This document shows, piece by piece, positions 8,666-23,144 of a stretch of DNA of 64,000 bases. Position 1 is the first letter of the stretch; each line of letters begins with the position of its first letter. The translations under genes were made by a program, and so were the position numbers. The notes under the pieces were generated by a model. That model saw nothing but the letters and a program-made list of their open reading frames with translations, ran no database searches and was not told the origin of the DNA. Source of the stretch: an uncultured Clostridia bacterium (GTDB lineage: Bacteria > Bacillota > Clostridia > TANB77 > CAG-508); NCBI GenBank assembly GCA_963931445.1, contig OZ007016.1:1546-65545 (forward strand). The letters are read 5' to 3'.

Positions 8666-9301
8666 TCATCTGTACCAATTATTTCTTTTTATTAATTCTT
8701 CTACAACTTTATATGCTGCTGTATAAGGATTGCAATTTTCATTATCTAAGGCTTGTCCTAAATCTAAATGATGCTTTTCAACCTTTTTAGCATTTTTTAT
8801 AGCAACATCTGTTTTTTCTTTTAAAACAGGATAAGTATTCATACTTTTTGTATATACCTTTATTTTATCTTTTATATCATTTTGAACTTCTTCACTTGAA
8901 ATATATGTCTTTGTTGTATATCCAAAATGTAATCTATACCAATATTCAAATGTTGGAGTTGAAGTTATAAATTGGGCTCCATTATCTATAGCTAACTTCT
9001 TAGCTTTATCAATCTGACTTTGTTTATCTTGATTTACATCTGTATCTAAAACCACATAATACTTATCATCATCTTCTCTTCCAATTTCTTTGTCTATAAA
9101 ATTTAATAAATCACTGACAATTCCAACTGGATCTGTGCTATTTCCAGTAGAAAATTTTATAATACATTTTCTACTATTAAAATTTTTAAAATAAATCTCT
9201 TCTGTTTTATTATTTCCTTCACAACCTATTACAATAATAGGTCTTCTTTTTCTATTTTGCCTGTTTCTTCCTCTTTGCTTAAAACTTTCTAATCTTCCCA
9301 T
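8666..9301 (-). CDS. RloB-like (TOPRIM/OLD-family-like) protein. Probable AbiLii-like partner of the upstream ATPase.
   Basis: N-terminal IIVIGCEGNNKTEEIYF motif typical of the RloB family. Overlaps the ATPase gene by 13 bp, so the two are translationally coupled. Confidence 0.65.
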   Translation of the reverse strand: MGRLESFKQRGRNRQNRKRRPIIVIGCEGNNKTEEIYFKNFNSRKCIIKFSTGNSTDPVGIVSDLLNFIDKEIGREDDDKYYVVLDTDVNQDKQSQIDKAKKLAIDNGAQFITSTPTFEYWYRLHFGYTTKTYISSEEVQNDIKDKIKVYTKSMNTYPVLKEKTDVAIKNAKKVEKHHLDLGQALDNENCNPYTAAYKVVEELIKRNNWYR

Positions 9302-10581
9302 AAGCTATCACCTGTAGCCACAAAAGGAATCGCTCCATATCTACCATTTAAATATCCTTTTTGGATATTCTCATTTTTTCTAACTGAGAAGTCATCAAGA
9401 GGATATAAATCAGTAGCCCATTTCTTTGGATCTTTTTCTGCAAACCATATCTGGTCTCTTCTAAATATATCTAAAGATAATAAATTTGTATCATGTGTAT
9501 TAAATATCAACTGTGCATTTCCTTTATTAATTTGTGGGTTATGAAAGAATTTAATAATCATTTCTACTAAATTAGGATGCAAACTTCTTTCAATTTCATC
9601 TATTACTAATATTTTTCCATTCTCAAAAACATCTTTTAATATTGGTGCAAATGAAAATAGAATTTGTGTTCCTGAAGACTCATTATTAAAGTTTAATTCA
9701 TAGTTTTTCATATTTCCTTCATCATTAGTAACTTCATGTGTCATTCTTATTTTTACATTCCTTTGTTTTTGTGGCAATATTTGTGAAGGAATATTAAAGT
9801 TTTTTAACAGTATCATCATATTGCTATCTACATCACGTTCTTCGATTTCTACACTAAAGTCTTTTATTACAATGTCTGCTTCATTTAATAATTTTAATGC
9901 AAATTTTTTTAGTTCTTCCCCTCCATCTTTGTTGTTATATGACTCTACAACAAAATCGTTTAATAACATTCCACCAGTATATGTGTCTATATTTTTTGCA
10001 AACCACAAATATGGTTCTTTTGTCTTATCATAATTCCATGTTGTTGCCGTAGCTAAAAATAATTTATTTTCGATATTTTGAGTTTTAATCGTATTTAATT
10101 TTCCTTCATCTGCTTGTAGAAATTTATATTCATTTACATTTGTTCTTTCAAATATTCTTGTTGGTTTTGCTGTAAAATATTGATATAAATATTCTTCATA
10201 TACTCTTTGTTTATCTGCTATAAAACCATATATATATTTTATTTCTTTTATATAAAAAACAAACTCAAATTCGCAGGGTTCTAATTTAGTTTTTTCGTCA
10301 AAAGCAAATGGTTCCATTTCTATTAACTTTTCTCCAACCTGCCTATTATTTGATTTTCTTATCATTAATATTGCTGCTGTAAAGGCATTCATTAAATTTG
10401 TTTTTCCTGATGCATTTGCTCCATATATTGCTGTGCTTTTTAAAATTCTTTCATTTATATTTGGTGTACTTATAATGTTTTCTTCATTTTCTGTTCCTGT
10501 TGCTGCTTCCATACTGAAAGTTACTTTATCCTTAAATGATTTGAAATTTTTAACACTAAATTCAACTAGCATCACTTTCAC
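9289..10581 (-). CDS. AAA_21/ABC-type ATPase (AbiLi-like / RloA-like).
   Basis: Walker A YGANASGKTN and Walker B ILVIDEIERSLHP. Paired with an RloB-like gene, as in AbiL and OLD-type abortive-infection modules. Confidence 0.7.
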   Translation of the reverse strand: MKVMLVEFSVKNFKSFKDKVTFSMEAATGTENEENIISTPNINERILKSTAIYGANASGKTNLMNAFTAAILMIRKSNNRQVGEKLIEMEPFAFDEKTKLEPCEFEFVFYIKEIKYIYGFIADKQRVYEEYLYQYFTAKPTRIFERTNVNEYKFLQADEGKLNTIKTQNIENKLFLATATTWNYDKTKEPYLWFAKNIDTYTGGMLLNDFVVESYNNKDGGEELKKFALKLLNEADIVIKDFSVEIEERDVDSNMMILLKNFNIPSQILPQKQRNVKIRMTHEVTNDEGNMKNYELNFNNESSGTQILFSFAPILKDVFENGKILVIDEIERSLHPNLVEMIIKFFHNPQINKGNAQLIFNTHDTNLLSLDIFRRDQIWFAEKDPKKWATDLYPLDDFSVRKNENIQKGYLNGRYGAIPFVATGDSLWED

Positions 10582-10763
10582 CTCTCTTTATATATTATAT
10601 GCTATTTTTATAAAAAAGTAAACTAATTTCAATAATATTTTTTCTATTTATGCATTTTTTATTCATTTTTTTATTAAATATTATTCATTTGTGCTAGAAT
10701 TTTTGAGTATCTATTTTTTATAAAATATCAATTTATAAAACTATTTTAATTTTAAGTCATAAA

Positions 10764-10790
10764 AAATATCGCTTAAAAGCGACATTTTTT
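10764..10790. terminator. Hairpin tcgcttaaaagcga flanked by A- and T-runs. Probable bidirectional intrinsic terminator.
   Basis: Perfect 6-bp stem followed by TTTTTT on the + strand and preceded by AAAAAA. Confidence 0.4.
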
Positions 10791-10972
10791 ATTTAAAATT
10801 CAAACTTTCATATTTTGACTTTTAATTTTTGTGCATTTTTCAATTTTTACAAAAATAAAAATTAAAAATTTCTAATATATATTATTAGTATAAAAAACTA
10901 TCATTGTTAACAAAAAGCTTGCTATTTATGGTATATATCAATGTTTTTTTGCATAAAATACTATTAGAATTG

Positions 10973-11003
10973 TTGACAATTCTTGTTACTATATAGTATA
11001 ATA
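10973..11003 (+). promoter_or_regulatory. Near-consensus sigma-A-type promoter (TTGACA, 18-bp spacer, TATAAT) reading into the antisense of the 11060..12302 operon.
   Basis: ttgacaattcttgttactatatagtataat. No + strand ORF follows it. Confidence 0.35.
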
Positions 11004-11059
11004 ATTACAACTCAACTACCAAGATGTAGTAGGAGATCCTGGAAACGTCATTGATATTC

Positions 11060-11599
11060 TTAAGTCAATGGCGTTTTCTGCATTTTATATTTTTCATATT
11101 TCTTTATATATTTTTCCATTGCATTATCATACTCAATATAATATCCCGTTATTAGTAAATTATAATTCTGTCTTTTTTCTATTATGACCAAAAATTTTAC
11201 GTCCTTGAATAAAAAATATGCTCTAACATTCTTTTTATAATATTCTTCAAAATATAAAATTTTTTCACAGTTTTTACAACTCTCATTACATTTATAATTT
11301 TCAATGATTGCTCTATTCCACCCTATTCTTTCAGCTCTTCTTGGATCTGGTATTCTATCATTTGGATCATTAGATTTATGAAATTCATCTTTATGCGTTA
11401 AATGTATAAATGTATGTTCATATTTTCCATCCATAGGTGCTTTTCTAAAATTTACTCCTTTACCTTCAAATATTGGCTTACTATCTATAAAGTCTTTTTT
11501 AAATATAGAGTATAAAATGTCTAAATATTCATTCCAATTATTATAATCTTCGCATTCCACTATTTTAGGTAGCCATTTGCAGTTATCCAATGTTATCAC
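11060..11599 (-). CDS. Hypothetical protein (179 aa) with several Cys residues (CNESCKNCEK), overlapping partner of the DUF3800-like gene.
   Basis: ORF only. It overlaps the 3' end of the upstream ORF by 17 bp, which suggests an operon. Confidence 0.45.
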   Translation of the reverse strand: MITLDNCKWLPKIVECEDYNNWNEYLDILYSIFKKDFIDSKPIFEGKGVNFRKAPMDGKYEHTFIHLTHKDEFHKSNDPNDRIPDPRRAERIGWNRAIIENYKCNESCKNCEKILYFEEYYKKNVRAYFLFKDVKFLVIIEKRQNYNLLITGYYIEYDNAMEKYIKKYEKYKMQKTPLT

Positions 11600-12302
11600 C
11601 TGCTTTCAAATTGATGCAGAACAAGTTGAATTTTTTCTCTGATAACATTGTGTTTTTTGTTAATGAATATCCACTTTTATTGATAATATGCATCATTAGT
11701 TCTTTTTTTGCCCAACTAGAATTTTCTTCATCATAAACTTTTCTGTTCCTGTATCCAATTGCTCCAATAAATAAGTCAGCTAATTGCATTATTATACTTT
11801 CTTCCGAATTAATAGATTGTATATTTTTTATTACATTAAATTCATAATCCATTAATTTAAAACTTAAGTATTTTTTCACACCTTCTACTTTACTAGCACT
11901 CTTTGTATCTTTAATATCTAAATAAATATAATTTTCTTGTTTTGGTTCAACTAAATTAATTAATAAATAGTAATACATTTTATAATACCAATCATCATGA
12001 GTTTGGTTGAATAATTTATGATTTAATTGTGTTTTATCAATAATTATTGCTCTAAATCTTAAATTTTCGTTTTCAAAAAAATAATCTACAAGTTCTTTAT
12101 AATATGATAACTTTGAAGGCGAAACTTTATTCCATTTTATTTCAGCTCTATTTGGAACATTATATTTTCTTTTTATATTTAATATATCTCTCTTTATACA
12201 TTTTCTGCTACTTTTTTCACAGATTATTCCACCTAATACCATATATTTTTGATTGTCGTGTTCCAAATGACAACTTTCGTCACAATATATATTATACTTC
12301 AT
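11583..12302 (-). CDS. DUF3800-like protein (239 aa).
   Basis: N-terminal YNIYCDES and C-terminal IMQLADLFIGAIGY motifs are characteristic of the DUF3800 family, called here from memory of the family signature. Confidence 0.5.
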   Translation of the reverse strand: MKYNIYCDESCHLEHDNQKYMVLGGIICEKSSRKCIKRDILNIKRKYNVPNRAEIKWNKVSPSKLSYYKELVDYFFENENLRFRAIIIDKTQLNHKLFNQTHDDWYYKMYYYLLINLVEPKQENYIYLDIKDTKSASKVEGVKKYLSFKLMDYEFNVIKNIQSINSEESIIMQLADLFIGAIGYRNRKVYDEENSSWAKKELMMHIINKSGYSLTKNTMLSEKKFNLFCINLKAGDNIG

Positions 12303-12361
12303 ATAAAGTTCCTCCTTACTTTTTATATAAATAATTATTAACTAAATCACAATTTATCTGA

Positions 12362-12962
12362 CTAAATTTCTATATCATCAACGTTTATTTGTCCATTCAT
12401 TAAAAGTGGTAATATGAATTCTTTTAATGATTTTAGTTTTTGACTTTCAATTTTATTTTCTGAAATTATATCAAACATTGGCCTAACCAAAATATTAAAT
12501 TGGCTTATTTCTTCTTTTTCTGGTATATATATTTTTTCTTGTTTTAATAAATCTTTTTGCAAATGTTTTAATCCAGAACCATGAAAAAACTTTCTATCTA
12601 ACTCTCCTCTAATGGTTTTAAAGTATAAATATAAATAATCTGAAAAATCTCCATTAGTAGTAACACACCATGTATCAGTCGAATACATTGCTTTACCTAC
12701 ATAATATTTAACATCTGCATTTCCACCTGTATTAAAAAACAAATTTCTTCCTTCAACTAAATAATCATTCCACTCTAATATTGATTCTCCACTTGTAAAG
12801 AATGGATATTTTCCTTTAAGTGTTTTCGCATCACTTACCTTTATTTTTGATTTTTCATTTTCTTTTATAATGTCTCCTATTGTTCCATTCAGGATTTTTT
12901 TAGTAAACCTTTGTAAAAAGATACTATACGCTAATTCCTCTAAATTATTATTTATCTAATCT
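12362..12962 (-). pseudogene. hsdS': Silent hsdS' cassette: second target-recognition domain plus conserved C-terminal region, with no start codon of its own.
   Basis: The frame is open from the TAG at 12944-12946 (INNNLEELAYSIFLQRF...FTSGESILEWNDYLVEGRNLFFNTGG...) to 12362. Its C-terminus QKLKSLKEFILPLLMNGQINVDDIEI is identical to that of hsdS. The ~96-bp DNA repeat 12343-12438 equals 14583-14678. Confidence 0.65.
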
Positions 12963-13526
12963 TTATGCAACTTTATAATCTAAATTATTATTTATCTTAG
13001 AATTATTTTTAATTTTCTCATTTATTAAATCTAAAAATTTGGAAATTTTCCTTTGAATTTTCAACTCTGGTATCCAAGCTATGCAATCCATAATTTTCTC
13101 TGGAGAAGTGTGTCTGATTTTTGTCTGTTGTGATGATACATCTAATTGTTTTTTTATTATAGAAGATGATATGAGATAATATGCGAATCTTGAATCCAAC
13201 TCTTTCGGATTTGGAATAACAAGACCTATATCTCCACTTTGAATATATTTATTGTCTTCTGGTATTATTGCTGTTTCTCCTAATAATCCAGATACTTGTT
13301 CTGTTAATGGTGTAATAATATCTCCTTTTTTTAAGATAAACTGTGGTTTAACTTCTCCAGTAAAGTAAATGTCTGATTTGGCTGTATTTTCTTTAAACCC
13401 TCCTCCAGGATAATCAAAATTTCCTAAAGTTAATCTTATTTTATCTCCTGTGTCTGAATAATACTTTCCTGATAAGCTTGTACCTCTTTTAACTTCTAAT
13501 ATTTCTTTTAATTTAACTTCCTTCAT
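12963..13526 (-). CDS. hsdS': Type I R-M specificity subunit fragment (TRD1' of the silent hsdS' cassette).
   Basis: HsdS TRD-like sequence ending in the central conserved ...INNNLDYKVA. Its frame is offset from the downstream TRD2' cassette. Confidence 0.6.
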   Translation of the reverse strand: MKEVKLKEILEVKRGTSLSGKYYSDTGDKIRLTLGNFDYPGGGFKENTAKSDIYFTGEVKPQFILKKGDIITPLTEQVSGLLGETAIIPEDNKYIQSGDIGLVIPNPKELDSRFAYYLISSSIIKKQLDVSSQQTKIRHTSPEKIMDCIAWIPELKIQRKISKFLDLINEKIKNNSKINNNLDYKVA

Positions 13527-13532
13527 ATCTAT

Positions 13533-14528
13533 TTACCCTATATACTTTCTATGTGATATCCTCACATTATTTTGATTAACCATTGCATAGTGCATTGTTG
13601 TTTCAATTTTAACATGTCCCAATAATTTTTGCACTTGTTCTATAGGCATACCCTTATCAATTGCCATTGTGGCTAAAGTTCTTCTAAATTTATGAGGATA
13701 TGCTTTATCTATATTAATATTTTTACCAATATTTCTAATTATTAATTCTATACCAGAAATTGACAATCTTTGATGTGGTTTATTTTTAGAAACAAATAAT
13801 GCAGTTTCATTATCATTTCTATTTTCTAAATATTCTTGTAAATGTATTTTTGTTTTTGCATCAAAGTAAACCTCTCTTTGTTTATTTCCTTTTCCTAATA
13901 CAACACAAGATCTTTCTTCAAAATTTATATCTGATATGTTTAAATTGACTAATTCTCCTACCCTCATTCCCGTTGTAAGTAATAATTCTATTAAAACTAA
14001 ATTTCTAATGTCATTTTTACATAAATCCCTCATTTGTTCTATGTTTTCATCTGAAAAAGTATTCTTCATAACCTTTGCTGTTTTGACTCTATGTATTCTC
14101 CTTGCTGGACTTTTTACAATATAATTTTCATCTTCCAACCATGCAAAGAAACTAGAAAATATTCTTCTCATATTATCAATCGTTGTTAAACTGGATTTAT
14201 TTTCTTCTTTATAGTCAGATAGATATTTTCTTAGGTCTTCTGTTGTTATAGTTTTAATCAACTTTTTAATACTCATTGTCATTTTTAAAATTATATTTCT
14301 ATAGTATTCAATAGTTTTGATAGAACAACCTTCTATCTTTTTAGCTGATAGAAATTTATCTATTAACTTACTATTTTCCATGTCTTCTTGTTTTCTCTCA
14401 ACATCCTTTAGGGAAATATCATATCTGGAAAAACATTTAACTAAGGTTATCTTTAGATTTTCTGTTTGCTTTATCGTAAGTGTATCTTCTAAATCTTTAG
14501 TAATTTCAATAATTAAATTATTTTCCAT
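13533..14528 (-). CDS. Tyrosine recombinase (XerC/D-like) embedded in the hsdS locus. Likely hsdS shufflon recombinase.
   Basis: MRVGELVNL, HKFRRTLATMAI, and GHVKIETTMHY (R...H-x-x-R...Y catalytic motifs). It lies between hsdS and hsdS'. Confidence 0.8.
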   Translation of the reverse strand: MENNLIIEITKDLEDTLTIKQTENLKITLVKCFSRYDISLKDVERKQEDMENSKLIDKFLSAKKIEGCSIKTIEYYRNIILKMTMSIKKLIKTITTEDLRKYLSDYKEENKSSLTTIDNMRRIFSSFFAWLEDENYIVKSPARRIHRVKTAKVMKNTFSDENIEQMRDLCKNDIRNLVLIELLLTTGMRVGELVNLNISDINFEERSCVVLGKGNKQREVYFDAKTKIHLQEYLENRNDNETALFVSKNKPHQRLSISGIELIIRNIGKNINIDKAYPHKFRRTLATMAIDKGMPIEQVQKLLGHVKIETTMHYAMVNQNNVRISHRKYIG

Positions 14529-14601
14529 ATAATAATTACACCTCCGTATAACTATTATACAACATTAAGTAAACTAGTTCGCTAAATCACAATTTATCTG
14601 A

Positions 14602-15870
14602 CTAAATTTCTATATCATCAACGTTTATTTGTCCATTCATTAAAAGTGGTAATATGAATTCTTTTAATGATTTTAGTCTTTGATTTTCTTCTAAATTATT
14701 TATAAACGTTTCTATTAAAGCACTACATTTTTCTTCAAATTTATCAACAATTTTGATAGAATATGCAACTTTAACCTTACCTAATTCTACAGGGCTTAAA
14801 TTCTTTTGTGAAGTACCTGTAGAAACACTTTCACATTTGTTTTTTATATAATCATTTCTAAATAAAGAATATAAATAACTTAAATTATTTTTTTGCTTTA
14901 TTTTTAATAATCGTTGATTTAATAACACTTGATTTTCATATACTAAGCCCACTCTACCTACATTTCCTGTTAATGACATTATTAGATCTTTTGGTTTTAG
15001 TATACATTCATACGGTAAATTAAATGGTAATTTTTCAATCGTATTATCTACATTTGAAACTATATTTCCATCTTGGACGTTTTTTATTGTATACAACTTA
15101 TATCTTCCATCATTACAATATGTATCTGAAGTAAAAGCATACCCTGTTATAAAATCACTTATTTCATTAATATTTACGACTTTCCAATTTTCAGGGATTT
15201 TGCTTTTTAGTTCTTCATTATAAGCTAATTTACCATCATTAGATTTATATGGTTTTCCTTCTTCGTTTGGAAATTCAAATTCAATAAACCATCTTTGATA
15301 AATTGTTTTCATTAATTCCTCTAAATTATTATTTATCTGATTATTAATTAATATTTTCTTTTCTATTTTATATAGCATATCTCCTATCTTCACTTGAGTA
15401 TCATAGTCAGGAATTTGTATTTTTATGTAAGAGAAGATTTCTTCATTAAAACTAGCTCTTAAAGTCATTATTGTATTAGCATTAACTATTTTTCTGAAGT
15501 ATTTACTCCTAAAATAAAATGCCATATATTTATCATATACTTTTTTATTATCGATTGGTCTCAATCTCTTAGCAAATCCGCTAAATGTTGCATTTGGATA
15601 GTCTTTTAATGCAACACTGCTCATTGCCAATTCATCTGGAGTTTCACTTGTTCTTGTAATAAACACGTCACCCTTCTTTACTGAATATTTTATTCTATCC
15701 CTATCTGAAGTGTTCATTAGTTCTGTTAAATTTTCAGGCAAAAAAGTATTATTAAATATATCTCTAAAAGAAACAAAAGGATATCCCCTACCTGCTTGAC
15801 TCTTTGAAGAGCTTATTCCGGATGACATAACATACAATTCATTTAATTTATATTCTTTTAATTTACTCAT
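14602..15870 (-). CDS. hsdS: Type I restriction-modification specificity subunit HsdS (two TRDs).
   Basis: TRD, then central conserved region (INNQINNNLEELMKTIYQRWFIEFEFP), then TRD, then conserved C-terminus. Overlaps hsdM by 8 bp. Confidence 0.85.
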   Translation of the reverse strand: MSKLKEYKLNELYVMSSGISSSKSQAGRGYPFVSFRDIFNNTFLPENLTELMNTSDRDRIKYSVKKGDVFITRTSETPDELAMSSVALKDYPNATFSGFAKRLRPIDNKKVYDKYMAFYFRSKYFRKIVNANTIMTLRASFNEEIFSYIKIQIPDYDTQVKIGDMLYKIEKKILINNQINNNLEELMKTIYQRWFIEFEFPNEEGKPYKSNDGKLAYNEELKSKIPENWKVVNINEISDFITGYAFTSDTYCNDGRYKLYTIKNVQDGNIVSNVDNTIEKLPFNLPYECILKPKDLIMSLTGNVGRVGLVYENQVLLNQRLLKIKQKNNLSYLYSLFRNDYIKNKCESVSTGTSQKNLSPVELGKVKVAYSIKIVDKFEEKCSALIETFINNLEENQRLKSLKEFILPLLMNGQINVDDIEI

Positions 15871-17524
15871 ATTTCAATTTCTCCAAATTATCTTTTATTT
15901 CTTGTTCTAATATTTTATTTTTTTCAAATAGTTCATTTAATTCCTTTTTATAATAACTAATTTTATTTTCAAATTCCTCTTTGGTCATTTCTACATATTC
16001 TATTTTTATTTCAAAATATTGTCCTGCACTAAATGAATAATTTTTTTCTTTTATTTCATCAAATGAAACTAAAACACTAAAATCATCAATTGCTTCCTGA
16101 TTAATAAAAGTATCTTCGATTTTCTTTATTTCATCATTTGACAATACTGTTTTCTGATTTTTTCCCTCTTTAACTTTACTTCCTAAATTAGAAGCATCTA
16201 TCAATATTACTTTTTCTGATTTATTTACTTTATCAATAAATAAAACAGATACATTGGTTCCAGTATTTGCAAATATATTACTTGGCATAGAAATAACACC
16301 TTTTAGCCACTTGTTATCAATGAGTTTAGTTCTTATTGCTTTTTCTATTTTACTTTGAGCTGTTAAAAAACCTGTTGGAACAACAATTGCAGCTTTTCCA
16401 TCATCTTTCAAACTATATAAAATGTGTTGAATAAAACATAAATATATAGCCATTTTTTTCTTATCTTTATTTGGAATTTTTGGTATTCCTGCAAAAAATC
16501 TATCTGTATCGCTCCATCTTCTTTCTATTGCGTCTCTAGTTGAAGAAAAGTCTGTCTTAAAAGGTGGATTAGCAGTTATATAATCAAATTGCTTTAGTCC
16601 ACTATCTGGATTATATGGTAATTTATAATGTGATGGATTTAAAAGTGTATCTCCCTCAATTATATTATCCAAACTATTTGTTAATCCATTTAATATCATA
16701 TTAATTCTTAAAAATCTTGAAGACTTATTTGAAATATCTTGTGTATAAACTTGAGCTTTATCTCCAAATTTTCCTTTTCCAAGTTCATTTGCTAAATGTA
16801 AGACAAGTGAACCTGAACCTGCAGCTGGATCATATACCTCGTATATTTTATCTTCTACTGGAGACATATTTACTAATATTTTAGCAATTGTGCTTGAAAT
16901 GACTTGAGGTGTAAAATATTCGGCATAAACACCACTTGCAACATTGTAATCTTTTATTAGATATTCAAATATTGCACTATAAAAATCAAAGTTATTTTTA
17001 AATGCTTCTCCAAATGAAAATTTATCTTGACTTATTATCCCAAAAATATTTTTTGCAAAATTATTTTTCTTTGAAGATTCGACATTTTCTGTTATTCTTG
17101 TAAATAATGGTTTTCTTCCTCCATCTGCAGTGTCAATACTAAATTCATCATTTTCTGGATAATTAGAAATCCTTTCCAATGCATCATCAAACAATTCATA
17201 AAATTTATCATTTGTACTTTTATTAATTAAGTATTCAATTGTATCTTCATATTTAAAAGCTACATCTTGAGGATATGTATTGTAAAAGACTATCAACTCT
17301 TGATGTTCATTTTTTAGTATTGTTTCTAATAACATTCCCGTTTTTTCTGAAAAATCATTTAAATTAGCCATAAATTTATCATTTAGAAACTTATACAGAA
17401 ATACTGATGTTATAACTACTTCTTCACTAGCTTGATTTGATAGTCCATTTGTTTGGCATAGACCTTTAAGCTCATCTATCATTTCTTTTATTTTATTTTC
17501 TAATTGTGTTACTATTTGTTCCAT
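15863..17524 (-). CDS. hsdM: Type I R-M N6-adenine DNA methyltransferase HsdM.
   Basis: SAM-binding motif YDPAAGSGSL and catalytic motif ITANPPF (NPPF). Position in the hsdR-hsdM-hsdS operon. Confidence 0.9.
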   Translation of the reverse strand: MEQIVTQLENKIKEMIDELKGLCQTNGLSNQASEEVVITSVFLYKFLNDKFMANLNDFSEKTGMLLETILKNEHQELIVFYNTYPQDVAFKYEDTIEYLINKSTNDKFYELFDDALERISNYPENDEFSIDTADGGRKPLFTRITENVESSKKNNFAKNIFGIISQDKFSFGEAFKNNFDFYSAIFEYLIKDYNVASGVYAEYFTPQVISSTIAKILVNMSPVEDKIYEVYDPAAGSGSLVLHLANELGKGKFGDKAQVYTQDISNKSSRFLRINMILNGLTNSLDNIIEGDTLLNPSHYKLPYNPDSGLKQFDYITANPPFKTDFSSTRDAIERRWSDTDRFFAGIPKIPNKDKKKMAIYLCFIQHILYSLKDDGKAAIVVPTGFLTAQSKIEKAIRTKLIDNKWLKGVISMPSNIFANTGTNVSVLFIDKVNKSEKVILIDASNLGSKVKEGKNQKTVLSNDEIKKIEDTFINQEAIDDFSVLVSFDEIKEKNYSFSAGQYFEIKIEYVEMTKEEFENKISYYKKELNELFEKNKILEQEIKDNLEKLKYE

Positions 17525-17536
17525 TTACTTACTCTC

Positions 17537-20500
17537 CTATTTATATAATTGAATATTTTTATATAAATCATTTAACATTTGATCATATATGCTACTAATT
17601 TTTTCGAATAATCCTTCCTGAAATAATTTTATTGTTATCTTTTGCTTAACTGAATCTACAAAATTCTTCTTACCTTGTACTAAAAAAATATCTGTATCAT
17701 AAAAATTTGCAATTTCTTCATAGATAATTCTCAATACTCTTTTTATTATTGATTGGTCTATATCTTCATTTTCTGTTAAGTCTTGATATGTTTTAACAAA
17801 AGCAAAATTGCCACCATAGGTATTTGAAAGCTCATCATTTTTTTCATTTATCTCTTTAGCTTTTTCTAGTGCTTCCTTTAATTGTTCTGTTAGTTCATCC
17901 ATATTGTCTAAGTCTGATATATTTAATTTATTAAATACTTCTTCCAATAGTTCATTAAGCTTCCTAACTTGAATATCTTCTTTGTTTTTATTGTCTTTTA
18001 TTACTCTCTGAATCTCTGTCGCTGTATCTACAAAATCTCTTATTCTTGGATCACTCTCAATATCTAGTTTTGATAAGTCTAATATTGTTATTTTTGTTTT
18101 TATAAAATTATATAATATCTCTACTACTTCTTCATTTGAAATCACATCCATCATACCAACAGTATCGGAAGATAAATTTATAAAATCAATCCTTTCCTGA
18201 GTAGCCTTTCTTAGCGCTTTATATTTTTCTGACTCTTCTGCTGATATATATTTATCCTTTACTCTAGAAATAATAAATTCAGTTTCACAATCTCTAATTC
18301 CATTTAGTAATCTTCTAATTTTTAACAAAGCTTCTCTATTTAAATTTGTTAATTTTTTTGAAAATCTTTCAAGATTATCTATATCTTCTATAATATCTTT
18401 TAAATCTTCTAAATATTTTTGATATTTTTTATTAATATCATCTATTCCAACAACAAGTCCAGATAAAGAGCCTTCATTTTCTCCGTTATCATTTATATCA
18501 GCTTCAAGTTCTTTTATATATGCTTCTATTGTATTATTATACTCTTGCTCTATATCAACAAAATCAACTATATAACCATATCTATAAATTTTTCCATTTG
18601 GTGATTTATATGGTCTATTAACTCTTGATATTGTCTGTAAAAGATTCTGTGCATGGGATCCTCTCAATAAATACATTTTCTTTAATCTCTTTACATCATA
18701 TCCTGTAGTAAGCATTAGATTAACAACTAATAAATCAGGGAAAGTATCATTTCTGAAGTTTAACTGATTTTCTTTATTAATTTTACTTTGTGTAGGATCA
18801 GCTGTATCTGTAATAACTAATCCTGTTTTTAATTCTGAATTTTTTTCAAACCATTTATGTACTTTTCTAGCCTGTTCATTTGTTCTGCAAACAATCATTC
18901 CACCTATTGTATTATCCGTATTTTGAAATCTAAAATTTTTAAAATCTCTCTCAATAAATTTTCCTAAAGCTGATATATAAGCATCTGATTCATACACATC
19001 CTTATTTTCTAATTGGTTATCTTCAATATCAAGATTTTGTTTTATTTCTTTTTTAGCGACAGTATCTATATCTTCTTTTTTTATTCTTAGCGTATAACCA
19101 TCTGCAATAGACTTATCATAAAAGTATTTATGTATATAATCTCCAAATTTCAAATTTGAACGTTCTTTTTTTGAAAGTAATGGTGTTCCTGTTAAAGCAA
19201 TATATATACCATTTGCATCACATATCATCAAATTTTTAAAAAACTCTCCATTTTTAGAATAACTTCTATGGGCTTCATCTACAAAAAATACTCTTTGGAC
19301 ATTTGCATTATAATCATTTTTTGCATTAGGCATTTCTCCCTCAAATTTTTGTATGTTTACAACACAATATTCTCCTATAGAATCATTTAAATTTTTTGTT
19401 GAAAGTGATTTATTTAACTCATTAGAAAATTCAGCTTTATTATTACAATTAATAACACTAAATCCTCTACTTTCGAACTCCGAACTAGCTTGCCTTAATA
19501 AATCTATCCTATCAACTACAAAGAAAAATCTAGCAACAATGTTCTTCTTTGCATAGTAATCTCTTATAATTCTATTACTATATGCTGCTAATGCTGTTTT
19601 TCCACTTCCTTGAGTATGCCAAATAATTCCGCCTTTTCCTCCACTCTCAAGTCTATCTATAATTTTCCTTGTTGCAAAGAATTGAGGATATCTCATAATT
19701 TGCTTTTGTGGAACTTTTTCATTTACATATAATATTCCATAATATAAAAAATATAATATTCTTTCTTTATCAAATACTGATGTAATAAAACTATTACATG
19801 GTTTTGTATCTTTTAAATTTTCTTTAAATTCAACAGTATCACAAACTTTTTTATCATAACCTAAATCTTTAGTTATATTCTTTATTTCTTCCTCACTAAT
19901 TTCTTTATAATCATATTTCAAATTATATAATTCATCATCTTCTCTAAAAAAAGAAAAACTAGTATTATTTCCATTTGGTGTTGTATAAAATGAGCCAGCC
20001 CTAACTTCTTCTGCTTCATCTGAATCTTCATATTCCATATTATTTGAGAATGCAACAATTTGAATAAGATTAAAATATTTTTTAAATGCCCCATTTTTTA
20101 ATCTATCATTTATCATTCTTTTAAATTCTTTTTGAATACCACCTTCATTATTGGGTTTTTTAACTTCTAAAAATGCTAAAGGTATTCCATTTATTAAAAC
20201 ATTAATATCTGGTCTAAAAGATCCTACATCTGAATCTGGAGTAATACTAAATGGTAATTCATCAACTATCGCAAAATCATTATTTTCGATATTATCAAAA
20301 TCTATAAGTCTCAATTTATCTTGAGGTTTTATTAATCTATAATAAAATTCTTTTCCTAAATCATTATTTCTTATTAAATTATTTATCTCATCTAATAACT
20401 GCTTTATCTCATCATAAGATATTTCCCTGTTATTAATCTTTTCGATTGCTGGCTTAAATCTATTAATAAAAATTTTGGTATTAAAGTCTATATCAAGTTT

Positions 20501-20593
20501 ATCATCCTTTAATGATTGATAATTATATCCTATTTTTAAAAATTGGATTGTTGCTGGTATTTTAACCCTTGTATCTTCATTAAACTTTTGCAT
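17537..20593 (-). CDS. hsdR: Type I restriction enzyme HsdR (1018 aa).
   Basis: N-terminal PD-(D/E)xK motif PDINVLINGIPLAFLEVKK. Helicase motif I GIIWHTQGSGKT, and the DEAH box VFFVDEAHRS. Confidence 0.9.
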   Translation of the reverse strand: MQKFNEDTRVKIPATIQFLKIGYNYQSLKDDKLDIDFNTKIFINRFKPAIEKINNREISYDEIKQLLDEINNLIRNNDLGKEFYYRLIKPQDKLRLIDFDNIENNDFAIVDELPFSITPDSDVGSFRPDINVLINGIPLAFLEVKKPNNEGGIQKEFKRMINDRLKNGAFKKYFNLIQIVAFSNNMEYEDSDEAEEVRAGSFYTTPNGNNTSFSFFREDDELYNLKYDYKEISEEEIKNITKDLGYDKKVCDTVEFKENLKDTKPCNSFITSVFDKERILYFLYYGILYVNEKVPQKQIMRYPQFFATRKIIDRLESGGKGGIIWHTQGSGKTALAAYSNRIIRDYYAKKNIVARFFFVVDRIDLLRQASSEFESRGFSVINCNNKAEFSNELNKSLSTKNLNDSIGEYCVVNIQKFEGEMPNAKNDYNANVQRVFFVDEAHRSYSKNGEFFKNLMICDANGIYIALTGTPLLSKKERSNLKFGDYIHKYFYDKSIADGYTLRIKKEDIDTVAKKEIKQNLDIEDNQLENKDVYESDAYISALGKFIERDFKNFRFQNTDNTIGGMIVCRTNEQARKVHKWFEKNSELKTGLVITDTADPTQSKINKENQLNFRNDTFPDLLVVNLMLTTGYDVKRLKKMYLLRGSHAQNLLQTISRVNRPYKSPNGKIYRYGYIVDFVDIEQEYNNTIEAYIKELEADINDNGENEGSLSGLVVGIDDINKKYQKYLEDLKDIIEDIDNLERFSKKLTNLNREALLKIRRLLNGIRDCETEFIISRVKDKYISAEESEKYKALRKATQERIDFINLSSDTVGMMDVISNEEVVEILYNFIKTKITILDLSKLDIESDPRIRDFVDTATEIQRVIKDNKNKEDIQVRKLNELLEEVFNKLNISDLDNMDELTEQLKEALEKAKEINEKNDELSNTYGGNFAFVKTYQDLTENEDIDQSIIKRVLRIIYEEIANFYDTDIFLVQGKKNFVDSVKQKITIKLFQEGLFEKISSIYDQMLNDLYKNIQLYK

Positions 20594-20792
20594 TATTTTA
20601 CTCCCTTATTATTACATATTTTCTTTTCTAGCCTATGTTCTAACTAATATAACGTTAATCCATCATCTGTATATCATATTTTTACATATTCAGGAAATGA
20701 TGGGTTTGTAAAAATATATATTCTTTCCTACTTTTTCTTCATTTTACACAATCCTTTCTCAAATTAATACATTATAATACTACTTATTACAT

Positions 20793-20987
20793 TTTATATC
20801 ACAAAATACTTTTTTTCTCAAGGAATGAGATAAGATATTTTATATTTTTCAAAATTCATTTTATTTTTATGTAATACAAATCACATCAACTTCAGATTTC
20901 AAAAATTTTCTAACTTTTTCTAAACAAAAATTATTACATACAACTTTAAATCTAGTATTACTAAAAAGACTACTATCTACCATATAA
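20793..20987. repeat. 195-bp direct repeat (left copy) flanking the IS1634-family element. Long target-site duplication.
   Basis: Identical to 22950-23144. It contains a duplicated copy of the 3' end of the minus-strand gene 23024..23353. Confidence 0.8.
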
Positions 20988-22949
20988 CGGGAATTTGACA
21001 GTTAATTAAATAAAAAATTGATATAAGCATTGGAAATGCTTAATTTTTTTGTCAAATTTTTCTTTTTCCTCTTGCGTACTTGTCGTACTTGTGATACAAT
21101 ATGAAAAAACGGAGGAAAAAGATGAGATTAAAAATTACTAAAACTAATTCTGATACTAATTACTATGTAATTAAAGATATAAAAACACATTCTGGTAAAC
21201 GTACTACAATGATTTATGAGAAACTTGGAAATGAACAAGATTTATTAAAAAAATCGAATGGTGAAGATATTTTAGAGTGGGTTAAAAAATATATTAAAGA
21301 TTTAAATGAAAAAGAACAAGAACATAAAAATGATATTTTAATTAAAAAATCACCTTCTAAGATAATTTCAAAAGATGAACAATTTTGTTTTAATGTAGGT
21401 TATGTTTTTTTGCAAAATATTTATCATTCTTTAAGATTAAATAATATTTGTAGCGAGATTAGTGATAAATACAAATTTAATTATGATTTGGATAATATTT
21501 TATCTAGACTAGTATATAGTAGGATAATATATCCTTCTTCAAAATTGGCTACTTTTGAATTATCTAAAAAATATATTGAACAACCTAATTTTGAACTTCA
21601 TGATATTTACCGTGCTTTAGAAGTAATTGCAAAAGAAACCGATTTTATTCAATCTGAATTGTATAAAAACAGTTTAAGAGTATCTAAGCGAAATACCAAG
21701 ATTCTTTACTATGATTGTACTAATTACTTTTTTGAAATTGAACAAGAAAGTGGGTTAAGGCAATATGGTCCTTCTAAGGAACATAGACCTAATCCAATTA
21801 CTCAAATGGGTCTTTTTATGGATGGAGATGGTATTCCTTTAGCTTTTAGTATTACAGCTGGAAATACTAATGAACAAATTACTTTAACTCCATTAGAAGA
21901 AAAAATATTAGAAGATTTTAAATTATCTAAATTCATTGTTTGTACTGACGCTGGTCTTGCCTCAAACGCCAACAGAAAGTTTAATGATAAAGATGATAGA
22001 GCCTTTATCACGACTCAATCAATTAAGAAATTAAAAAAACATTTAATGGATTGGGCACTTGATCCTAATGGTTGGCATCTTTCTGGAGATAAAAAAGAGT
22101 ACAATATTAAAGAGATAGAAAATGACGAAAAAAGTTTAGAGCTTTACAAAGATAGAACATTCTTTAAAGATCGTTGGATTAAAGAAAACGGATTAGAGCA
22201 AAAACTAATTGTAACTTACTCTTTAAAATATAGAAATTACCAGAGACAAATTCGTAATTCTCAAATCGAAAGAGCCAAAGTTGCAATAGCTAACAAAAGT
22301 TTCAAACTTGATAAATGCAATCAAAATGATTTTAAAAGATTCATAAAGAAAACTAATATTACAAAAGATGGAGAAGTAGCTGAAAAGAAAGTATTATCAT
22401 TAAATACTGACACAATCCAAAAAGAAGAAAAATTCGATGGCTTTTATGGTGTTTGTACTAATCTTGATGATGATCCTGAAGAAATTATCAAAGTAAATCA
22501 AAGAAGATGGGAAATTGAAGAAAGTTTTAGAATAATGAAAAGTGAATTTAAAGCCAGACCAGTATATTTAAGTAGAGATGACAGGATTACAGCACATTTT
22601 ACTACTTGTTTCCTTTCATTAGTAATTCTTAGATTTTTAGAAAAAATGCTTGATGAAAAATATACAAGTTCAGAAATTATTGATACATTAAAAAATATGA
22701 GTATGCAAAAGAATTTTGATTGCAGTTATGAACCAATTTATACAAGAACTGATTTAACGGATGACTTACATGAAAAATTTGGTTTTAGAACTGATTATGA
22801 AATACTACAAGAAAGTAGATTAAAAAAAATCTTAACAAAAACAAAAAAATGATTTAAGTACGCATTTTTTAATTAATCTATTGAAGACTGAAAGCCTTTC
22901 ATTTCAAAGGCTATCAGTCTTTTACTCTTTTTCAACTGTCAAATTTGAG
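20988..22949 (+). mobile_element. IS1634-family (IS4 superfamily) insertion sequence, about 1.96 kb.
   Basis: Terminal inverted repeats gaatttgacagtt (20991-21003) and aactgtcaaattt (22934-22946). A single large DDE transposase ORF. A 195-bp TSD, a length typical of IS1634-like elements. Confidence 0.7.
21122..22852 (+). CDS. IS1634/IS4-family DDE transposase.
   Basis: About 577 aa, single ORF inside the IS. The ATG at 21122 is preceded by a ggagg RBS. The upstream ATG at 21101 lacks an RBS. Confidence 0.7.
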   Translation: MRLKITKTNSDTNYYVIKDIKTHSGKRTTMIYEKLGNEQDLLKKSNGEDILEWVKKYIKDLNEKEQEHKNDILIKKSPSKIISKDEQFCFNVGYVFLQNIYHSLRLNNICSEISDKYKFNYDLDNILSRLVYSRIIYPSSKLATFELSKKYIEQPNFELHDIYRALEVIAKETDFIQSELYKNSLRVSKRNTKILYYDCTNYFFEIEQESGLRQYGPSKEHRPNPITQMGLFMDGDGIPLAFSITAGNTNEQITLTPLEEKILEDFKLSKFIVCTDAGLASNANRKFNDKDDRAFITTQSIKKLKKHLMDWALDPNGWHLSGDKKEYNIKEIENDEKSLELYKDRTFFKDRWIKENGLEQKLIVTYSLKYRNYQRQIRNSQIERAKVAIANKSFKLDKCNQNDFKRFIKKTNITKDGEVAEKKVLSLNTDTIQKEEKFDGFYGVCTNLDDDPEEIIKVNQRRWEIEESFRIMKSEFKARPVYLSRDDRITAHFTTCFLSLVILRFLEKMLDEKYTSSEIIDTLKNMSMQKNFDCSYEPIYTRTDLTDDLHEKFGFRTDYEILQESRLKKILTKTKK

Positions 22950-23144
22950 TTTATATCACAAAATACTTTTTTTCTCAAGGAATGAGATAAGATATTTTAT
23001 ATTTTTCAAAATTCATTTTATTTTTATGTAATACAAATCACATCAACTTCAGATTTCAAAAATTTTCTAACTTTTTCTAAACAAAAATTATTACATACAA
23101 CTTTAAATCTAGTATTACTAAAAAGACTACTATCTACCATATAA
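22950..23144. repeat. 195-bp direct repeat (right copy). Forms part of the native gene 23024..23353.
   Basis: Identical to 20793-20987. Confidence 0.8.

Follow-up and report, generated by a model that had tools for sequence, protein, structure and literature searches.

How can a type I restriction-modification (R-M) locus that holds two specificity genes and a recombinase gene change its specificity if all the repeats shared by the two copies run in the same direction? The question is raised by the hsd locus in a 64,000-nucleotide (nt) stretch of DNA, here called the window, from an uncultured, low-G+C, gut-associated clostridial bacterium (GenBank assembly GCA_963931445.1, contig OZ007016.1; G+C content of the window, about 25%). 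Our analysis suggests that the locus is a phase-variable type I R-M system whose specificity is changed by moving target recognition domain (TRD) cassettes between two tandem hsdS loci of the same direction, the upstream locus E and the downstream locus S. We put the probability of this reading at about 0.72.

All features of the locus (hsdR, hsdM, hsdS, the recombinase gene, TRD1′, and TRD2′) are on the minus strand. Locus E is a full-length hsdS gene (422 amino acids [aa]; 14602..15870) with two stretches of Pfam Methylase_S, and cassette typing resolves it into TRD1 (type T1#3) fused to TRD2 (type T2#5). Downstream of it lie the gene for a XerA-type tyrosine recombinase (331 aa; 13533..14528; Pfam Phage_integrase, 4e-38, and SAM_4) and locus S (hsdS′), which is composed of a TRD1′ open reading frame (ORF) (type T1#0, 187 aa; 12963..13526) and a TRD2′ cassette (type T2#1; 12362..12931, in a reading frame spanning 12955..12362), both with Methylase_S matches. 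TRD1′ has its own ATG 7 nt past the recombinase stop codon and the C terminus ...INNNLDYKVA-stop; the head of TRD2′ has no start codon, and its frame differs from that of TRD1′. Thus, TRD cassettes of a single orientation stand on both sides of the recombinase gene and adjoin hsdM (553 aa; 15863..17524; Pfam N6_Mtase, 6e-69), which overlaps the start of hsdS by 8 nt, and hsdR (1018 aa; 17537..20593; Pfam HSDR_N, SWI2_SNF2, ResIII, and T1R_D3-like). The clustering of hsdR, hsdM, and a two-TRD hsdS identifies a type I R-M locus. An earlier note on this DNA had given the order hsdS, recombinase, TRD1′ ORF, and start-less TRD2′, with which the ORF coordinates and Pfam domains agree.

Two exact repeats join the loci. 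The first, of 26 nt, is present in locus E (15313..15338, where it encodes INNNLEE of the central helix) and at the head of TRD2′ in locus S (12932..12957), and it contains a central site, [c], with the core GATAAAT-AATA-ATTTAG. The second, of 96 nt, ends both loci (14582..14677 in E; 12342..12437 in S) and comprises the HsdS C terminus, the TAG stop codon, and a tail site, [t], of the form GATAAAT-TGTG-ATTTAG (14582-14598 and 12342-12358); it reaches 20 nt beyond the stop codon and extends to 107 nt at 98% identity. Both repeats had been described in the earlier note. Its 25-bp central pair (12939-12963 and 15309-15333) is misregistered by 11 nt and not identical, and its 96-bp 3′ repeat, right in length and in its 20 nt past the stop, is off by one. 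A 19-nt sequence, AGATAAATAATAATTTAGA, occurs three times, in hsdS at 15320-15338 and in hsdS′ at 12979-12997 and 12939-12957. There are thus three copies of [c], all within the region coding for the central helix, and two of [t], just 3′ of the stop codon. The two site classes have the arms GATAAAT...ATTTAG in common, the only difference being the 4 nt at the centre (AATA versus TGTG), so that the mid-point and tail-end direct repeats share the core GATAAAT-N4-ATTTAG. A degenerate pattern, GATAAATNNNNATTTAG, has five matches in the 64-kb window, where 0.07 would be expected, and all five lie at the hsd locus on the same strand. Palindromic arms and unlike centres mean that the sequence is compatible with either orientation of [t] relative to [c]. 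No above-chance inverted repeat links hsdS and hsdS′, and all their shared repeats are direct, as had been claimed; with all cassettes on one strand, a classical inversion shufflon is rejected.

The extra [c] copy (12979-12997) sits 40 nt upstream of the copy at 12939-12957. Together with a 21-nt spacer, TTATAAAGTTGCATAAAGATT (12958-12978), it makes up a 40-nt stop module (12958..12997, minus strand), in which the TRD1′ ORF ends. It is because of this duplication of site and spacer, missed in the earlier note, that TRD1′ and TRD2′ are in different frames, as the note had correctly observed, and that TRD1′ terminates in INNNLDYKVA-stop; removal of the module would turn TRD1′-TRD2′ into a single ORF. 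The module is also found behind other cassettes. Among the contigs and loci compared (numbered with the prefix L; L013-L092 are GTDB species genomes), it stands behind the window's own TRD1 type (T1#3) in L113 and L114 and behind other TRD1 types in L102, L103, L105, and L108, the modules being seen behind T1#3, T1#6, or T1#7. Its position inside locus E is confined to related lineages with other cassette combinations; in L103 and L105, locus S is intact, and a TRD1′ 97% identical to that of the window reads through in frame into a TRD2, which gives a 404-aa HsdS. The hsdS′ cassette is thus not simply silent, as it had been called. Analogous modules with a spacer that ends in VA-stop occur in L014, L015, L019, and L020. 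Random decay as the origin of the frame break is ruled out by the same discrete module in every contig and by its analogues in distant relatives.

Other arrangements of the locus exist in natural populations. By exact-protein look-ups, the same strain was located in several metagenome assemblies of one project; the 422-aa HsdS of the window itself had no match in such a look-up. Over 9.2 kb, a region that starts ahead of hsdR, takes in an insertion sequence, and continues through hsdR, hsdM, and TRD1, the window and L007 are 100% identical; the flanks are 100% identical to those of L008 and 99.9% identical to those of L003; the same-strain contigs differ from the window in cassette placement only. 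In L001, L002, L007, and L008, TRD2′ is fused to TRD1, which yields a 375-aa HsdS. The order in L003 is [c]-TRD2′-[t]-rec-TRD1′-[c]-sp-[c]-TRD2 (rec, recombinase gene; sp, spacer), that in L006 is rec-TRD1′-[c]-sp-[c]-TRD2-[t], and in L112, a 23-kb contig of a related strain, TRD2-[t] runs on into the downstream DUF3800 gene. Together, the three contigs show TRD2 and TRD2′ in reciprocally swapped positions. A second TRD2′ copy lies downstream in L008 and in L007, a long-read contig of 764 kb. Two contigs assembled with a k of 31 break off at the [c] repeat, L009 on the 3′ edge (15313) and L010 within the repeat, 7 nt before that edge (15320). Cassettes thus occupy alternative positions in otherwise identical backgrounds, and the window's own strain shows two of the four arrangements predicted below, T1-T2 and T1-T2′. 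The downstream TRD2′ of L007 (11445-11937) is itself rich in substitutions and indels, strictly between [c] and the 96-nt repeat, and its flanks match the window perfectly. That it represents a consensus of mixed TRD2 and TRD2′ reads is unsupported; a k-mer test gave no sign of admixture.

In sister lineages, whose recombinases are 98% identical, all cassettes between sites were typed. The TRD2 cassettes of L094, L095, and L100 are exchanged relative to those of L093, L096, L099, and L101; L093 and L094 are 100% identical upstream and 99.8% identical downstream, with the TRD2 pair exchanged. In every TRD2 swap observed, the 5′ crossover lies in the 26-nt [c] repeat. Because polymorphisms within the tail repeat move together with the cassette, the 3′ crossover can be placed within its last 63 nt, which include [t]. 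One contig (L119) has the order TRD1-[c]-TRD2′-[t]-DUF3800 and no recombinase gene; it is a candidate for the product expected from excision and loss of a circle, a chimeric assembly path being also possible. Further contigs have the same TRD2 twice (L007 and L008 as above, L097, and L098) or two stop modules (L104 and L110). Within one species, four types of TRD2 and five of TRD1 form a shared pool. The comparison with related strains that the earlier note proposed has thus brought up other cassette arrangements in assemblies of the same and of sister strains. Its argument that direct repeats imply excision, deletion, or conversion, and not inversion, and that a full-length HsdS results from some of the products only, is borne out by reciprocal swaps, the candidate deletion, and non-reciprocal duplicates.

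The recombinase is of the XerA type, and its catalytic motifs are intact. It scores 240 bits against NCBIfam NF040815 (cutoff, 220), and its best PDB matches are the XerA chains 4a8e and 5hxy, with which the contexts of the RKHRHY motif align. Its segments GMRVGEL, GKGNKQR, PHKFRRT, LGHVKI, and MHYAMV align to motifs of 4a8e, the residues being invariant in an alignment of homologues. Ahead of the gene is GGAGGTG, a good Shine-Dalgarno sequence. This sequence and the start codon lie between the halves of a conserved inverted repeat, GTATAATA ... TATTATAT(G) (14529-14581 in the window), which is also present in L013-L015, L019, L020, L093, and L102, even at 65% recombinase identity. Its stem is weak and composed of A and T only, and none of its 8 pairs, all of them invariant or nearly so, shows a compensatory change; the repeat may serve as a −10 box, as a hairpin occluding the ribosome-binding site (RBS) in analogy to the tvr attenuator discussed below, or both.

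The recombinase family is very large and crosses phyla, with at least 8000 candidates at an E value of ≤1e-20; homologues in Bacteroides, Prevotella, Methanobrevibacter, and metagenome-assembled genomes (MAGs) of Clostridia and Bacilli are 55-68% identical. For comparison we took the best 80 loci from a scan of species-representative genomes, in which our own TRD profile was applied to six-frame ORFs; the closest relatives among these are from MAGs of uncultured Bacilli, Tenericutes, and Clostridia, with recombinase identities of 64-68% or less. Roughly 10 to 12 of the 80 loci are all direct and window-like (hsdM-hsdS-rec-hsdS′-hsdR), about 22 are all-direct arrays of the form hsdM-rec-(TRD)n-hsdR, and about 31 have mixed orientation, so that about half of the classifiable loci are all direct. 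Arrays of the all-direct form hsdM-rec-(TRD)2-7-hsdR were found in Prevotella and Bacteroidales (L013-L092).

In the four closest window-like loci (recombinase identity, 65-68%), one hsdS is intact and the other is split, in S (L014) or in E (L015, L019, and L020), and the split is always a [c]-spacer-[c] module. Their arms are CAAAT...ATTTG in place of the window's, common to [c] and [t], and again only the 4-nt centres differ (AATA versus TGTT; in L020, GATA versus TACT); [t] is always just 3′ of the stop codon. These co-varying arms and class-specific centres suggest the core site of a tyrosine recombinase with heterospecific overlap regions. In three species genomes, the downstream hsdS is the sole intact copy.

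TRD cassettes in L024-L091 are bordered by a 14-nt quasi-palindrome, TAAAT-N4-ATTTA, often in the form of TAAATGATAATTTA or the reverse complement of the latter (for example, at 6269, 6929, 8609, and 9302 in L025 and at 8686, 9213, 9965, and 10513 in L037). The quasi-palindrome is found in inverted and direct loci across Bacteroidota, Bacillota, and methanogens and is a candidate for the common core site of this recombinase family. L082 (5729 and 7970; also 6310, 8492, and 9044) possesses, besides the central and tail classes, sites of a third class, CAAAT-TCAG-ATTTG, one at the 5′ end of each hsdS copy, through which its TRD1 cassettes could likewise be exchangeable. The homologues of TRD1′ are overwhelmingly intact ORFs of 184 to 200 aa (522 proteins at an E value of ≤1e-40); a protein search for in-frame TRD1′ fusions returned mostly such split forms, and the 404-aa fusion of L103 was not among the matches listed.

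We propose that the embedded XerA-type recombinase acts on both short site classes and that each class pairs with its own kind only, as is suggested by the shared arms and the different central 4 nt. Recombination between two direct copies of the same class would excise a circle that carries the recombinase gene. Reintegration of the circle via the other class or another copy would swap TRD2 and TRD2′ or, alternatively, place the 40-nt stop module, which follows TRD1′ in the window, behind TRD1; loss of the circle would lock the locus. When excision and reintegration at same-class sites are enumerated, the set closes at exactly four arrangements; each can be reached from the state of the window in one round and has one full-length HsdS (T1-T2, T1-T2′, T1′-T2′, or T1′-T2). 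The recombinase is the probable catalyst of the exchanges and a circle their probable intermediate; switching would take place in clones, and an intact locus S would be expressed.

Several observations weigh against cassette exchange of this kind. The alternative arrangements all come from assemblies, mostly of short-read metagenomes, and mixed populations can yield chimeric paths; such paths through shared cassettes may lie behind L119 and the contigs with duplicate cassettes, and short contigs with a TRD1′-TRD2 junction could derive from the circle and not from the chromosome. The states with a duplicated TRD2 or with two modules are not generated by the intramolecular model and need intermolecular events or conversion, unless they are assembly chimeras. 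Furthermore, in the 2+2 loci of the tvr system of Streptococcus pneumoniae, the upstream hsdS alone is active (PMC6265443), which makes expression of locus S uncertain here.

Among the other explanations, the one that survives best, though we consider it unlikely, is that the split products are active: the 187-aa TRD1′ with its helix would be a half-size specificity subunit, either dimerizing or joining a TRD2 half translated on its own, and the cell would have more than one specificity at once. Truncated HsdS halves that form active methyltransferases are known in the EcoDXXI and EcoR124I families. In agreement with this, TRD1′ begins with its own ATG right after the recombinase gene and retains most of the central helix; TRD2 types #5, #2, and #4 have GAGGA-N4-ATG directly after [c], and it is at this ATG that gene callers begin ORFs of 232 to 236 aa; in databases, the split form with one TRD is also the common one. 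However, TRD2′ (#1) has no start codon, the 187-aa product is without the distal part of the central conserved region, and active halves would be compatible with cassette exchange without replacing it.

Somewhat less likely still is general homologous recombination or gene conversion between the repeats, with the recombinase uninvolved or serving another function. A repeat of 96 to 107 nt is sufficient for RecA-dependent exchange, which is also a point against the mechanism that we favor, and the non-reciprocal states, in which the same TRD2 is at both positions, resemble gene conversion. Excision at long repeats in tvr is documented to continue without TvrR (PMC6265443), and one account of spnIII includes recombinase-independent recombination (PMC6620402). 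Other observations argue for site-specific exchange instead: the 5′ crossover always lies within a mere 26 nt of identity; past the stop codon, in sequence free of protein constraint, a 17-nt site persists whose arms are shared and whose centres are class specific; the site co-varies between lineages; and the recombinase gene is intact and in the same position across phyla. That the locus is fixed, hsdS′ being a decaying duplicate and the variants strain differences or assembly artefacts, is very improbable, since the frame-broken hsdS′, the start-less TRD2′, the origin of all variants in assemblies (some at 2-5x coverage), and the degraded TRD2′ copy of the long-read contig L007 are set against a 26-nt repeat shorter than the assemblers' k (87 to 141), which means that junctions need supporting reads, the same swap with identical flanks in independent samples, assemblers, and lineages, a TRD1′ that is 97% conserved and in frame elsewhere, and a frame break that is the same discrete module every time and not scattered damage.

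The surroundings of the locus deserve a brief description. Between hsdS and the recombinase gene, neither an ORF nor a terminator-like hairpin was predicted, and promoter and terminator scans gave hits not above those in shuffled sequence. Downstream of the hsd locus are genes for a DUF3800 protein, a 179-aa protein of no assigned family, an AAA_21/RloB pair, and a SWIM protein, a set typical of a defence island. The hsd locus lies within this variable island (4825-12302 in the window; 4249-8329 in L112), which also includes a second tyrosine integrase; in the related strain (L112, 4249-8329), genes for Fic, an AbiJ kinase, and an endonuclease replace part of it. On the other side, at 20786-23144, there is an insertion of about 1.95 kb with an ORF for a 583-aa DDE_Tnp_1 transposase (21101..22852, plus strand). 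It is bounded by a direct repeat of 195 to 202 nt (20786-20987 and 22943-23144). The related contig L113 has a single copy of this repeat and no insertion; the repeat thus has the look of a target duplication, albeit of unusual length, which is reminiscent of IS1634-type elements.

In clonal populations, phase-variable type I systems alter both the defence against phages and the methylation pattern of the whole genome. Since nearly every survey is restricted to inverted repeats, direct-repeat loci such as this one are overlooked. The prevalence of direct-repeat loci may be the most useful by-product of our analysis, in that about half of the classifiable loci among the best 80 are all direct, whereas the literature treats such loci as a rare exception. 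The locus also offers a clear and testable rule of site choice (same arms, different 4-nt centre), and its stop module shows how a small element can ensure that only one specificity gene is active at any time. Sequence-based prediction of methylome heterogeneity in gut bacteria is one possible use of these two features; another is as naturally occurring parts for cassette exchange. More tentatively, at odds that we consider somewhat short of even, the locus may stand for a widespread subclass of type I systems with natural recombinase-mediated cassette exchange, heterospecific sites, and a conserved movable stop module of about 40 nt. One of two tandem hsdS genes would be read, both TRD1s and both TRD2s would be used (four specificities), the downstream copy would be expressed when intact, the circle might spread cassettes between strains, and, in this recombinase clade, all-direct loci would roughly match inverting ones in frequency. 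If so, the circle-borne spread of TRD cassettes would account for the pool shared within one species.

Among known systems, Mycoplasma faucium has tandem hsdS pseudogenes of the same orientation that share direct repeats and are proposed to recombine (PMC11062135); no recombinase gene was described and no variants were observed in that locus. The inverting shufflons of S. pneumoniae (ivr/SpnIII), Mycoplasma pulmonis, and Bacteroides fragilis, also called epigenetic invertons (PMC7672463), serve the same purpose with what is apparently the same recombinase family. Direct repeats were seen in 1 of 46 sampled recombinase-associated loci, and a small proportion of loci was inferred to work in this way (Huang et al. 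2020, PMC7672463); we found no wider survey of direct-repeat hsdS loci in the literature beyond this one. The earlier note was right in setting the locus apart from inverting shufflons; it is not without precedent, given tvr/SpnIV (PMC6265443) and the one locus of PMC7672463. Homologues 55-60% identical to the window's recombinase are found in hsdS loci of convergent or inverted layout in Bacteroides, Prevotella, Methanobrevibacter, and Streptococcus porci, where the cassettes are flanked by the same quasi-palindrome, TAAAT-N4-ATTTA. In contrast to these shufflons, in which inverted repeats allow segments to be flipped, the cassettes here are on one strand and each switch would require two recombination events.

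Engineered cassette exchange uses heterospecific lox or FRT sites, which have shared recombinase-binding arms and incompatible centres. The locus resembles it in that the cassette is bounded by two sites that would pair with their own kind only and would be exchanged in register. It differs in being natural and intramolecular and in having the recombinase gene on the putative excised circle; the rule for the central region is read from the sequences.

The closest parallel is tvr/SpnIV of S. pneumoniae, for which TvrR-mediated excision and reintegration of TRD cassettes via circular intermediates has been shown experimentally (Kwun 2018, PMC6265443), guided by mid-point (about 18 bp) and tail-end (about 70 bp) direct repeats with a common core of about 11 bp (PMC6265443). 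In both type I systems, TRD cassettes of a single orientation flank a tyrosine recombinase gene, a short mid-point repeat (26 nt here) is combined with a long tail-end repeat (96 nt here), there are four arrangements per locus (predicted ones here), and circle loss leads, or would lead here, to deletion products, of which L119 is our candidate. Cassettes are exchanged in tvr, and probably also here, through a recombinase-carrying circle that reintegrates at another repeat; it is for tvr that circles and recombinase dependence are demonstrated. Unlike tvr, it has no tvrA and tvrT (phd-doc-like toxin-antitoxin) genes, and its order is hsdR-hsdM-hsdS-rec-hsdS′ in place of hsdM-...-hsdR, the tvr order being that of the close relatives L014-L023. 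A search for a tvr-type attenuator next to the recombinase gene gave no terminator-like hairpin, only the AT-only inverted repeat at the RBS, without covariation. In tvr, the second 5′ cassette can be transferred to the upstream side (3+1), and exchange never involves the first one. Here, a site upstream of TRD1′ is lacking; it is the 40-nt stop module that would move, so that both TRD1s are usable in principle. The downstream copy is inactive in tvr, whereas its expression is implied here. Our comparison leads us to conclude that the locus probably works like tvr, with two new features: it does without a toxin-antitoxin pair, and it has a movable stop module.

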